Positions 37,106-41,180 of a stretch of 64,000 bases of DNA are shown here, in pieces (position 1 is the stretch's first letter; every line of letters begins with the position of its first letter). The stretch comes from a phage. A program made the position numbers and the translations under genes. The DNA lies in the sequence record NC_103192.1, one strand, 5' to 3'. Under the pieces are notes generated by a model that saw only the letters and a list, made by a program, of their open reading frames with translations, was not told the origin of the DNA and searched no databases.

Positions 37106-40100
37106 ATGAGCATGTATAGCTTCGATTTTGAGGCCTCCGGGCTTTTGGAAGATCCAGATCTTTATTATCACTGCGGCCTGTTTAAAGAGCTGAATAAGAA
37201 CCGTTTTATGCTGTTCCTCCCTCTAAATGACCGCACACACTACTCCGAGGAGGATATAGAGAAGGCTAAGAACTTTATTCTGGCAAAGAAAACTCTTTAT
37301 AAAGATTTTGAAGTTCGCATAGCAGATTTTTCAGAGTTGGAAGGTTGGCTTACAGGCAATTCTGACTGGTCACCAACAGCTTTGAACTGCCATAACTGCT
37401 ACAGTTATGACTTTATGCTGATGGAGAGATTATCCGGTATTCATTTTGATATGTTCCGTGATCCTAAATGCATGGGTACTATCAACGATCACCAGGTTAA
37501 CCTGTTTGATACGTTGGCGATGAGCCGAATCTTGTGGCCTGATCGCCCTTTACCAAAAGGTTGCCCGGACGCTGTATTCAACCCGGTTACTAAGAAAATG
37601 CAGCCTGTTGGTCCTCACGGCCTTATGGCATGGGGCTACGCTCTTGGTAACCAGAAAGTTCAAATTGATGACTGGCGCGATCTTCCGCTGTGGAAGTATG
37701 TGGATCGTGTATTTGAGGACGTTATCATCCAGGAGCTGCTCTGGAAAGAGCTAGTAGCGGAATCAAAAGGTGTATTCTACGGCAAATCTGACATGCAGAA
37801 CTTCATGTATGACCCTGCCAAAGAGAAGCCTAAAGGATTCAAGAAGATTACCTGGAAGAATGCATTACGCCGAGGCATGCTGCAGCACTTCCTGATGGAG
37901 CTGCAGGCCCGTCAGGGTGTGTATTTCGACATAGATGGGGCTATTGCTTTACGTGACCGTTGCGATGCGTGGATGAAAGAGATCGCTGATCGTGTTGAAC
38001 CTCAACTCCCTTTAAAAGAGTTGTCAATATCTCAGCGGCCCAAGTTCCCTGAAAAGCCGTTTAACCAAGATGGGACAATCTCCAATAATGGTTGGAAATG
38101 GTTAAAAGATAAGCTTGGCTACCCTGTGGACATGAGCGCTTTAGATTTCAAAGCCCCACCTAAGCGAGCATTTACCTCCACAGGAGATGTCAGTAAGATG
38201 GGGATAAAATGGTGTGAAGAGATGGGCTGCAAAGACCCCGATAAGATGGCTGCTTTCTTGAGAGGCTATATTAAGGGCACTTCCACACCACAACCTTTAC
38301 CTAAAGAGCTGATGGATCAGGCAATAAGTGATCTACAGCAGAAGCGAATGCCTGACTGCAAGATACCTATGAAAATCAGCAATCAGGACGACATTAAGCG
38401 ATACCTGATCAGTGCTGGTTGGCTTCCGACAATGTGGAGAACTAAGGATGTAACTAAAGACAGCAAGAAGAAAGCTCTACCTGATGCAGATGTTGATGCA
38501 CGAGTATATGCATATATGGACGAGCTTTTAGAGTCAGAGTATTGTGACCTAATTATCAACTTCTGGAACAAAACTGATGCTAAGTTTCAGACAACAGTGC
38601 ACAAGTTCCGAAGCTTTCCTAACTCCGAAAGGATTAAAAAGGAAGTATTCGGGAAAATACGCAGAAAAGCTAGGGCACTTATTACTTCCCCGCAACTGAA
38701 AGATACGTTTGGACACCTATGCCCGAATCTTGAAAGATTGAACGGAGAGATGGCTAAAGATATCGTCTTGTGGTTATCATTGCGAAACCGCAGATCGGTA
38801 CTTGATCCAATCAAGGAGGATAAGGTTGATACTGGTCTTCTTAATCACCCACGTTTGAAGATTGACCATAAGCTTCCTGCTAAAAGCTCTGGATTAACAA
38901 ACACTTCCCGACAGAAACACAGTATTTGTGCAAACATGCCTAAACCATCTCCTAAAGTGGTTATGGGTAAAGAGATGCGTAGTCTGTGGGGTGTTCCTCC
39001 AGGATACTTTGAGATCGGTATTGACGGGTCTAACTTGGAGCAGCTTATCGGGGCTTGGGGTGCCTTTGAGTTCGACAACGGCCTGTATTACGATGTTGTA
39101 AGTAACGGCGATGCACACTGTTATTCAGGAGATACACAAATTCTCACGGAGAAAGGGTGGGTGAGGTTTGAAGATCTTGATCCGGGAACACAAGTGTTCC
39201 AGTACGATCACAACACCTCGTCGATGAACCTTGTTACTCCATTAAATTACGTTAAGCGTAGTTATTGTGGGGATATGTATCATTTCCACAACAGCGGTGT
39301 GGATTTTATGGTTACAGATCAACACAGGATGCTGACCGTGGATCACAGAAGCAATAAATTGTTTGAAGATTTGGCAAAAGACCTGAAAGCAGGTAAAGGG
39401 TCTAATTCAGGAAGAAGGTTTATCCATGCGGCAGAGTTTTATGGGAATACAACCTTATCTCCTGCCCAGGTTAATTTGCTTATTGCTATTCACGATGATG
39501 GGCACTTGCATACAAATAAGGACGGCAGCATCGTGTGCAGGATTCAGGTCGGGAAGGGCAGAAAAGTTGCAACGCTTTTAGATACTTTTTCTGCTCTAAG
39601 CCTTAGTTATGTAGAGCAGAGCGGGAAAACCACAAAAGGGGGCTTACTGGCGAGAAGGTTCCAATTCCACGTTCCGTCCTGGGTATTTGAGTTTTTGGAC
39701 AGCAATAAGGATTTCACCTACAACCTGATGGACCTTGATAAAGAATCTAAAAACCTGTTTATAGCTTCTTTATCTAACTGGGACGGGTGGGTATCTTCCG
39801 AAGGTGGAAAAGTTGCCTACTACTCTCAGGCCGAGTGCAGGAAGAAATCTGTAGAGGTTGTGTCTGCGCTGGCTACTCAGTGTGGTTTACGGAATAATAC
39901 GGTAGCGATTCACAAAAAAGGTCGTTCCGTACAGCACAGAATCACGATTGGTAGCAAACAGAGAGCAGGGTTGCTGACACTATCTAAAGAGTCTGTCGAG
40001 GTGAGCGGTTCTTTGGTTTATTGCGTTACCGTCCCTTCTGGAGCAATCATTGTGAGAAGGAATGGTAAAGTGGCAGTGTGCGGTAACTGTAATAACGCCA

Positions 40101-41180
40101 AAGCTTACTCTTCTGTAGCAGGCAAGGAGATTTCCCGTAACGATGGTAAGCCTGTCACGTACGGTGTTATGTACGGGGCACAAAAAGATAAAGTTGCAGA
40201 TATGCTGGACATCTCTCCAGAGTTGGGACAAAGGGTAATCGATGCGCTTTGGGATGCCAACCCCGGTCTTAAGGGGCGTAAAGAGGATCTGGAGAAATTC
40301 TGGGAAGCAACTGGTAAGAAGTTTATCTACTCTTTTGATGGTCATGCCATCTGGACCCGATCTAAACACTCTTTACTTAATGCATACCAACAAAATGGTG
40401 GTGCATCGTTGTGTGACTTAGTTGGGATACTCATGCACCACCAAATGGTGAAGCGTGGGTGGTACGATGAAGGTGTTCGCCGTATTATCTATTACCATAA
40501 ATAACATTGTGGCTTCGTGCAGTGATGCACGTCGAAAACCTCTTTAATTGACGGGAAGGCTAAGTTGACTTTTACACCTAAACATGGTAAAAGCTCGATA
40601 TGCTAATCCGCAGCGAAGCATCCGAGAGGATGAACGTTCAGAGACTATCGAAAGCATAGCTCCAGCATAGTTTGGTGTGAAGAAGCGAGTAGAGTAGGCC
40701 AGCAAGTGCGGTCGAAATGAGAGGTGCCTTGGTAACAAGGCAGTGAGATAGTCCGATCCATACGGGAAACTGTATGGCTATGCACGTAATGGTGCGGGGT
40801 AGCTTAACGACCTACCTGAACTATTGGATGAGTACCAACTTCAAGTACCTGACACACCGAAGTATAAGACTGTGTACACCTTCGACACAATCGAAGAACT
40901 GGAAGCATTTAAGGCAGAGCAGGAGGCCAAACTTCATGTGTTCGACGGTCATAAGTACAAAAAGGCACGCAAGGATGAGGACGGAAACGAAGTGGTTGAC
41001 AGAGACGGAAACACGGTGTACGATCCTATCCTGAACGATGACGGAAAGCTTGAACTTATCTGGAGCCCTGTGGGTGAAATGGTGGTGCATTGCTTCTGGC
41101 AAGCTTCTAAAATGATGGGCGTCCCATTCCAGATCACAGGTGAATACTTGTGTGGGGCTAATTGGGGTAGTTGTCACTAA
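37106..41180 (+). CDS. family A DNA polymerase, exons 37106-40498 and 40827-41180, containing an intein
   Basis: N-terminal exo motif FDFEASGL; motif A IDGSNLEQL; KPVTYGVMYGAQ (motif B region); HDE motif split across the intron (YYH | DEYQL); C-terminus GANWGSCH. Confidence 0.85.
39119..40087 (+). mobile_element. intein (323 aa) with LAGLIDADG-like homing endonuclease domain
   Basis: begins CYSGDTQILTEKGW (block A), block B TDQH, LAGLIDADG-like LLIAIHDDGHL and LFIASLSNWDGW, ends ...VCGN followed by Cys +1; extein flanks GDAH/CNNAK fit the family A pol O-helix region. Confidence 0.7.
40499..40826 (+). ncRNA. group I self-splicing intron (ORF-less)
   Basis: core elements P aattgacgggaagg (40546-40559), Q aatccgcagc (40605-40614), R gttcagagacta (40636-40647), S agatagtcc (40746-40754); 5' exon ends in U, intron ends in G; restores the HDE motif in frame. 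Confidence 0.8.

Follow-up and report, generated by a model that had tools for sequence, protein, structure and literature searches.

An intein with a predicted LAGLIDADG homing endonuclease domain in the DNA polymerase gene of an rV5-like Escherichia phage

The DNA polymerase gene in a 64,000-nucleotide (nt) stretch of phage sequence record NC_103192.1 (hereafter the window) carries an in-frame segment of 323 codons, and this locus raises the question of whether that segment belongs to the enzyme or is a selfish element that removes itself from it. We found that the segment, at positions 39119–40087 on the plus strand, is a genuine intein, a call that rests on its boundary residues, the existence of empty alleles, a predicted HINT fold, and homologs inside many unrelated host proteins. 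The source phage is rV5-like: the region 38000–41500 matches 121 phage records, nearly all of them Escherichia Vequintavirus, with phage Mangalyan as the best match at 97.7% identity. The open reading frame (ORF) that holds the intein spans 37106–40504 (1132 amino acids, aa), sits after a primase/helicase gene, and is annotated in relatives as DNA polymerase. An earlier reading of the letters alone (the original prediction) had proposed an intein with two LAGLIDADG-like motifs at this place, next to a self-splicing intron. The polymerase and intein features to which we refer throughout are:

37106–39118, plus strand: PolA exon 1, N-extein, 671 aa, ending in ...NGDAH (from the ORF list, the intein-free alleles, and alignment with T7 DNA polymerase, the His being T7 His506)
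39119–40087, plus strand: intein, 323 aa, Cys1 to Asn323 (from the empty alleles of phages I29 and JLBYU08, homologs in other hosts, the AlphaFold2 model, and Foldseek)
39119–39418, plus strand: N-terminal splicing (HINT) half, residues 1–100, with block A CYSGDTQILTEKGW and block B TDQHRM at 39314–39331 (from Hint_2, the 6zgq alignment, and family conservation)
39419–39970, plus strand: predicted LAGLIDADG homing endonuclease domain, residues ~101–284 (from the AlphaFold2 model, the Foldseek match to I-DmoI, Asp conservation, LAGLIDADG_3 in homologs, and a ratio of nonsynonymous to synonymous divergence, dN/dS, of 0.076)
39461–39502, plus strand: LAGLIDADG motif 1 helix PAQVNLLIAIHDDG, with Asp127, within the endonuclease domain
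39740–39787, plus strand: LAGLIDADG motif 2 helix KESKNLFIASLSNWDG, with Asp222, within the endonuclease domain
39971–40087, plus strand: C-terminal splicing half, residues 285–323, with block F VYCVTVPSG and block G VCGN (from family conservation)
40022–40024, plus strand: codon of Cys302, position F:4 of block F (from the alignment of 135 relatives)
40088–40090, plus strand: Cys+1 codon TGT, which is Gln CAA in the empty allele (from comparison with intein-free alleles)
40088–40498, plus strand: C-extein part of exon 1, with the O-helix RNDGKPVTYG, ending in ...IIYYH (from the intein-free alleles and the T7 alignment)

Translation of 39119–40087 gave 323 aa that start with CYSGDTQILTEKGW, continue through TDQH and the stretches LLIAIHDDG and SLSNWDG, and end in VCGN, directly followed by a Cys encoded at 40088–40090. 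The N-terminal Cys with its block A, the TDQH block B, and the Asn followed by Cys+1, all named in the original prediction, were thus found where it had placed them. Phages I29 and JLBYU08 have polymerases that share 98% identity with that of the window and are 323 aa shorter, and alignment of the alleles revealed that their DNA lacks exactly 39119–40087 (969 nt, 323 codons), which bears out the predicted extent of the insertion to the nucleotide. Across the 121 related records, the intein is present in six, namely Mangalyan, NHEP1, YP-6, 241Ecol014PP, EPFV3-03/2025 (EPFV3 below), and VB-EcoM-WM (WM below), and the remaining 115 are empty; an intein annotation was found in none of the six occupied records. 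In NHEP1, which carries the intein and lacks the intron, polA is a continuous gene encoding 1248 aa, the precursor length that had been predicted.

To locate the insertion within the enzyme, we assembled the spliced polymerase by removing the intein and joining exon 2, and aligned it with T7 DNA polymerase (E = 2.7e-13). GIDGSNLE falls on the T7 motif holding Asp475, and YYH|DE, the intron site, aligns with T7 VH653|D654E. The insertion site NGDAH|CNNAK corresponds to NGDIH506|T507KNQ of T7, with the intein lying between the equivalents of His506 and Thr507, and R1011, K1015, and Y1019, the counterparts of the T7 O-helix residues R518, K522, and Y526, follow 16–24 residues downstream of the insertion. 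In the T7 ternary complex, His506 contacts the incoming nucleotide. This alignment places the intein in the predicted deoxynucleoside triphosphate-binding region of a family A replicative DNA polymerase, just upstream of the O-helix, in agreement with the earlier assignment of the flanks to the O-helix region. The same D-x-H|T/S/C site also holds inteins of the same family in other, unrelated metagenomic PolAs (P0007, P0009, P0018, P0059, and P0130). These elements share the position after the His of D-x-H, and their +1 residue is mostly Thr or Ser (Thr507 being native in T7), whereas it is Cys here and in a further metagenomic sequence, P0002. In P0002, an intron-less polymerase further removed from that of the window (~77% identity in the exteins), the site is occupied by an intein of 88% identity, and the C-extein again starts CNNAKAY, indicating that the element circulates beyond the Vequintavirus-level group.

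Sequence searches with the intein itself recovered relatives far outside DNA polymerases. With tblastn against phage genomes, we obtained end-to-end homologs (100% coverage, 25–31% identity, E down to 2e-24) in the nicotinamide phosphoribosyltransferase (NAMPT) of Staphylococcus Kayvirus and in the large ribonucleotide reductase subunit of T5-like Salmonella phages, with further host proteins comprising the small ribonucleotide reductase subunit, PhoH, ThyX, RtcB, a primase/helicase, and a mycobacteriophage nucleotidyltransferase. The same 300–330-aa element is found end to end, at 21–33% identity, in at least 10 unrelated phage host proteins. An exhaustive HMMER search of 1.84 billion representative proteins returned 7652 matches at E ≤ 1e-3, and among the best 150 nearly all cover the full 323 residues at varied positions inside larger proteins; a word-indexed protein search with the single intein sequence returned no matches. 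The window intein belongs, as an unexceptional member, to a phage intein family that is very large and has already been studied. In the literature, we found no description of an intein in rV5/Vequintavirus polymerases or of a "PolA intein", and this instance is unannotated and apparently undescribed.

The residues expected to carry out splicing are conserved across this family. In an alignment of 135 relatives, to which all conservation counts given here refer, position A:1 is Cys in 130. In block B (T66-D-Q-H69 in the window), the B:7 Thr is kept in 126 and the B:10 His in all 135; B:11 is Arg in 82, including the window (Arg70 of His69-Arg70-Met71), and B:12 is Met, Cys, Leu, Ile, or Val in the family, Trp not being among the listed residues (Met71 in the window). 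Position F:4 is Cys in 135 of 135 (Cys302). At the C-terminal end, G:5 is Thr in 56 (Cys321 in the window), G:6 is Gly in 121 (Gly322), and G:7 is Asn in 116 and Gln in 12 (Asn323). The +1 residue is Cys in 84, Ser in 39, and Thr in 11, so that 134 of the 135 have one of these three.

Two members of the family have been characterized by experiment. The intein of the mycobacteriophage Bethlehem RDF (metallophosphoesterase) aligns end to end with that of the window (BLASTP E = 3e-11; 317 versus 323 aa), and both have Cys1, a T-x-x-H-R block B, the F:4 Cys (VWCLRVPNG versus VYCVTVPSG), a Gly-Asn end, and an embedded LAGLIDADG domain; it differs in having only 21% identity, another host protein, and an actinobacteriophage source. 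Complete splicing was reported for this intein, and its cloning required an endonuclease-inactivating mutation owing to endonuclease-related toxicity (Kelley et al. 2016, PMC5050341). Among solved structures, the nearest by sequence is the AceL NrdHF intein (6zgq), which a single-sequence search matched at E = 1.7e-5 and a profile of 14 members at 4.8e-11, over residues 6–99 of the window intein. The two share an xPNHRM-type block B (Arg B:11, Met B:12), an F:4 Cys followed by a Pro-Gly kink, and an x-Gly-Asn end. AceL NrdHF, which starts with Ala1 and follows the class 3 route, occurs naturally as a split intein, with a free-standing GIY-YIG gene where the window intein has its LAGLIDADG domain; the window intein, in contrast, is contiguous and starts with Cys1, and its G:5 residue is Cys instead of Thr.

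Our survey of the family also turned up further insertion points. A second PolA site, RLSSxxPN|(L to C/S)QNIPR, is more often occupied (e.g., P0036, P0046, and P0093), and the DE|xH site of helicases and the EGE|xD site of primases are recurrent insertion points for the same intein family. In three metagenomic sequences (P0011, P0012, and P0038), the +1 residue of one intein directly precedes block A of another (...SGN|CLSSDTEL, ...TGN|CYSEDTEI), an arrangement that resembles a nested or tandem pair of inteins lacking any extein between the two.

An AlphaFold2 model of the intein, built on a 22-row alignment, has a mean predicted local distance difference test score (pLDDT) of 85.8 and a predicted template modeling score (pTM) of 0.79, with pLDDT values of 91–96 over most of the splicing blocks. 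In this model, a beta-rich splicing domain formed by residues 1 to ~100 and ~285 to 323 is split by two alpha-beta-beta-alpha-beta-beta units. The first comprises helix 115–127, strands 128–132 and 138–144, helix 147–159, and strands 164–171 and 177–184; the second comprises helix 208–221, strands 223–225 and 231–236, helix 239–254, and strands 258–264 and 272–278. The first helices of both units end at an Asp-Gly pair, Asp127-Gly128 (LLIAIHDD127G) and Asp222-Gly223 (IASLSNWD222G). The two LAGLIDADG Asp residues are kept in 130 and 132 of the relatives, respectively, and Lys149 and Lys197 in 132 and 131.

Foldseek against the PDB matched the model to TliVMA (7qsu; 9e-15, TM 0.66), PI-SceI (1e-12), and PI-PfuI (6e-12, TM 0.68), with I-DmoI matching the central domain (E ~1e-5) and the mini-intein 6zgq the splicing domain. 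Like the predicted window intein, PI-SceI, PI-PfuI, and TliVMA consist of a HINT domain interrupted by a double-motif LAGLIDADG endonuclease (Foldseek E 9e-15 to 1e-10; query-normalized TM 0.55–0.68); they differ in sharing only 11–15% identity, in being 100–130 aa longer, and in having extra DNA-recognition regions. These three inteins, which come from archaea and yeast and have solved structures, carry a penultimate His. The confident model thus points to a HINT fold and resembles intein homing endonucleases, and similarity of this degree, like that in the sequence searches, is well outside what chance would give. At the sequence level, Pfam LAGLIDADG_3 (PF14528) matches 5 of 14 full-length homologs (best E = 6.5e-11), and together with the fold and the conserved Asp residues this backs the two LAGLIDADG-like motifs that had been recognized from the letters alone. 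A Pfam match of the window's intein to Adeno_Penton_B was set aside as spurious.

The flanking DNA bears two marks that distinguish occupied from empty alleles:

40088–40174, plus strand: downstream co-conversion tract (from mismatches to the intein-free allele and linkage to the intein)
39109–39112, plus strand: short upstream co-conversion mark (from two silent changes common to occupied alleles)

Across polA, the window and the empty I29 allele differ at ~2–4% of positions, and directly downstream of the intein 27 mismatches to the intein-free allele are packed into the 87 nt of 40088–40174. The upstream mark consists of silent changes at 39109 and 39112 (GGC GAT here, GGG GAC in empty alleles) that all occupied alleles have in common. 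The downstream tract alters seven residues, QNNAEAYTKVAGREVSRNDGKPI becoming CNNAKAYSSVAGKEISRNDGKPV, among them the Gln-to-Cys change at +1, a point that the original prediction missed. It is strictly linked to the intein, occurring in 6 of 6 occupied and in 0 of 109 empty records (none of the empty ones aligning upstream of 40115), and its right end varies: 241Ecol014PP, WM, and NHEP1 are back to the resident sequence by 40162, and the window, EPFV3, and YP-6 are not. Some 87 nt of foreign C-extein sequence, the Gln-to-Cys change at +1 included, arrived with the intein.

The divergence of the intein and that of its host gene are discordant. Compared with five of the occupied phages, the window intein differs at 2–8 of 969 nt, with a synonymous divergence (dS) of 0.005–0.019, versus 0.13–0.37 for the flanking N-extein; the intein dS is 10–40 times below that of the host gene. 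The intein is thus far younger than the split between its hosts, which is what recent lateral spread would produce. The WM intein represents a second lineage, with 116 differences and a dS of 0.55, versus 0.17 for the WM flanks. Against this copy, dN/dS is 0.083 over the whole intein; the N-terminal splicing part has 0.067, the C-terminal part 0.119, and the endonuclease domain 0.076. These low values indicate that the splicing and endonuclease activities have both been under purifying selection.

The exact boundaries, fold, family membership, sporadic distribution, co-conversion tract, age discordance, and purifying selection argue together for a splicing-competent intein with an active or very recently active LAGLIDADG homing endonuclease, which we regard as very probable. 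The six occupied records each name a phage and give its host and source, and since propagated phages need a working polymerase, we infer that the intein is competent to splice. Several observations weigh against this reading. The Pfam searches proposed with the original prediction gave a LAGLIDADG match for 5 of 14 homologs and fell short for the window's own sequence, which lies below every Pfam LAGLIDADG or Intein_splicing threshold, the only Pfam model to register being Hint_2, at 23 bits versus a cut-off of 28.4. Among the five near-identical copies, dN/dS is noisy (0.2–0.85) with few substitutions, leaving current constraint on the endonuclease unproven, and the occupancy of ~5% may also reflect inefficient homing. 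The invariant F:4 Cys, with a class 3 intein as the closest solved relative, also makes Cys1 less certain as the initiating nucleophile.

Some of these observations would also fit an intein that splices and carries an inactive or decaying endonuclease, having spread by ordinary homologous recombination between co-infecting phages. The occupancy of ~5% of sequenced relatives, the sub-threshold Pfam scores of the window's endonuclease domain, and the six amino acid changes of the EPFV3 copy, including H129Y beside motif 1, are in keeping with such decay, but both catalytic Asp and both conserved Lys are intact and the endonuclease domain has a dN/dS of 0.076 against the WM copy. Likewise, a sharply bounded co-conversion tract next to the intein, with right ends differing by phage, is a classic homing footprint, and the 10–40-fold lower dS of the intein relative to its flanks also speaks against decay. 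We therefore consider this alternative unlikely.

Under the reading of a splicing-competent homing intein, the group I intron would be removed from the polA transcript first, and the 1248-aa precursor would then be translated. Excision by the HINT domain would follow the standard class 1 route, in which Cys1 undergoes an N–S acyl shift at His671-Cys672, the resulting thioester is attacked by Cys+1, Asn323 cyclizes, and an S–N shift comes last; the product would be a 925-aa polymerase with Cys where the intein-free relatives have Gln. In co-infection, the endonuclease would cut the empty allele (...GGGGACGCACAC|CAAAACAATGCT..., the I29-type empty site being GTAACGGGGACGCACACCAAAACAATGCTGAGGCATATAC), and repair from the occupied allele would copy the intein together with flanking donor sequence. 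Because Gln is unable to act as the +1 nucleophile and cannot support splicing, the invasion of an rV5-type allele would have to co-convert at least the +1 codon.

The C-terminal end of the intein departs from the usual pattern in its penultimate residue, and on this point the original prediction was half right. Gly is indeed rare there among inteins generally; a reading in which it impairs splicing is rejected, Gly being the family norm and working experimentally in both Bethlehem RDF and AceL NrdHF. In Bethlehem RDF, changing the penultimate Gly to His slows splicing and precursor accumulates (PMC5050341). In AceL NrdHF, the corresponding G145H change abolishes activity through a clash with Arg69 at B:11 (Hoffmann et al. 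2020, PMC7891396), and Arg69 hydrogen-bonds the C-terminal scissile carbonyl, partly replacing the missing His (PMC7891396). The penultimate Gly of the window intein is probably co-adapted with Arg70 at B:11 in the same manner, the AceL NrdHF Arg contacting the C-terminal scissile carbonyl instead of the usual His.

What the earlier reader did not notice is the invariant Cys at F:4 alongside Cys1. In class 1 inteins, F:4 is usually Asp, with Cys second commonest, and in class 3 inteins the F:4 Cys is the branch-point nucleophile (PMC4031507, PMC2807308); for AceL NrdHF, in which Ala1 goes with a Met-Cys-Thr triplet, membership in class 3 has been proven (PMC7891396). The window intein has the F:4 Cys of class 3, and departs from that class in having a position-1 nucleophile (Cys1) and in lacking both Trp at B:12 and Thr at G:5. 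We rejected class 3 as a classification on account of the Cys1 that is present and the Trp B:12 that is absent, and the signature would file the window intein as class 1. Cys1, Cys302, Cys321, and Cys+1 are all predicted to lie around the active site.

This arrangement leads to another reading of the same intein, in which Cys302 is an obligatory nucleophile, acting through a class 3-type branched thioester or a Cys1-Cys302-Cys+1 relay. The F:4 Cys is better conserved (135 of 135) than Cys1 (130 of 135), the closest solved relative by sequence (AceL NrdHF, E = 4.8e-11) is proven class 3 with the same HRM, Pro-Gly kink, and a Thr-Gly-Asn end (PMC7891396), and inteins with a WCT motif that start with Ser1 or Cys1 had earlier been flagged as unresolved (PMC2807308). 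However, the retention of Cys1 in 96% of relatives is unexpected if it is dispensable, the TxxH motif of class 1 N-terminal activation (Thr B:7 and His B:10) is kept, no Trp is present at B:12, the homologous Bethlehem RDF intein was classed as class 1 by Kelley et al. (PMC5050341), and Cys at F:4 is in any case the second commonest residue in inteins generally (PMC4031507). An obligatory role for Cys302 is accordingly improbable on this evidence.

Considered as a whole, the family combines Cys1 with an invariant F:4 Cys, has Arg at B:11 and, instead of a penultimate His, Gly at G:6, and contains, in AceL NrdHF, at least one intein proven to be class 3. Tori and Perler (2011) reportedly dealt with class 3-like inteins that keep a position-1 nucleophile. 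It is conceivable, though doubtful, that the family is the redundant two-nucleophile intermediate through which class 3 splicing arose from class 1; in the window intein, given its four cysteines, splicing of the polymerase might then use a thioester relay or be gated by disulfides (redox control). Beyer et al. (2020) held that class 1 inteins cannot easily give rise to class 3 and that such a path is implausible (PMC7664689); a family that keeps both nucleophiles while including a class 3 member bears on that argument.

Finally, a native accessory domain, or a dead insertion kept in the mature polymerase, is scarcely credible and was rejected, because exact empty alleles exist: of 121 close relatives, with polymerases that otherwise share 98% identity, 115 do not have the segment, homologous elements are embedded in unrelated enzymes, the splicing residues are all intact, and retention would separate the equivalents of His506 and Thr507 by 36 kDa at a point 16 residues upstream of the O-helix Arg.

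Downstream of the intein, the same gene is interrupted a second time, and its remaining features are:

40499–40826, plus strand: group I intron of 328 nt that lacks an internal ORF in the window phage, splitting the catalytic motif C at His|Asp-Glu (T7 H653|D654) (from Rfam RF00028 and the intron-less NHEP1)
40827–41180, plus strand: PolA exon 2, DEYQLQ..., 117 aa plus stop (from the NHEP1 allele and the T7 alignment)

Rfam RF00028 has one match in the window, at 40489–40776 (73.7 bits versus a gathering score of 50), and NHEP1 lacks exactly 40499–40826. The boundaries, CAT|AAAT...ATTG|GAT, fit the rules for group I introns, a T preceding the 5' splice site and a G closing the intron. The RF00028 match and the intron-less NHEP1 allele uphold the earlier view that an intein and an intron, two self-splicing elements, have invaded one gene. 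From exon 1, the frame continues through two codons of the intron (CAT AAA TAA), which accounts for the apparent 1132-aa ORF. Within the 64-kb window, we detected no further inteins of the same family and no further Rfam elements beyond this intein and intron.

The intron is itself polymorphic. In Mangalyan, WM, and I29, it contains a 507-nt HNH homing endonuclease ORF that the window and JLBYU08 lack, and EPFV3, YP-6, and 241Ecol014PP have a shorter intron, with deletions of 15, 11, and 36 nt and a 9-nt insertion. The loci showing intron polymorphism are L001 (4006–4839), L002 (3037–3869), and L020. Among the alleles examined, every combination of intein and intron was seen except an allele without both; the two are therefore independent mobile elements.

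In the ORF list, exon 2 appears as a separate 118-aa, TTG-initiated ORF at 40824–41180, and in GenBank relatives it is listed as a gene of its own, called "DNA polymerase A" or "hypothetical protein"; this separate gene is an annotation artifact of the intron. Six GenBank Vequintavirus records label the gene as an ordinary or hypothetical 1132-aa protein, with exon 2 apart, where the mature polymerase would be 925 aa. The current understanding of inteins is unchanged by this locus, whose main value lies in the correction of annotation and in the study system that it offers. Occupied and empty alleles of the intein and of the group I intron exist here in a culturable E. coli phage. In this convenient natural setting, the co-conversion tracts and the forced Gln-to-Cys change at the junction make intein homing tractable to measure, and one could also follow how two selfish elements compete within a single essential gene and what the block F cysteine does.

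Two minor observations concern the related records. In 241Ecol014PP (L018, 4231–4878), an extra 678-nt insertion with a free-standing HNH endonuclease lies at the end of polA exon 2, at a point corresponding to ~41167 of the window, which does not have it. In addition, 16 or 17 records labeled "Campylobacter phage", with C. jejuni given as the host, share ~96% of their polA sequence with the rV5-like phages of E. coli, which suggests mis-assigned hosts or contaminating coliphages.

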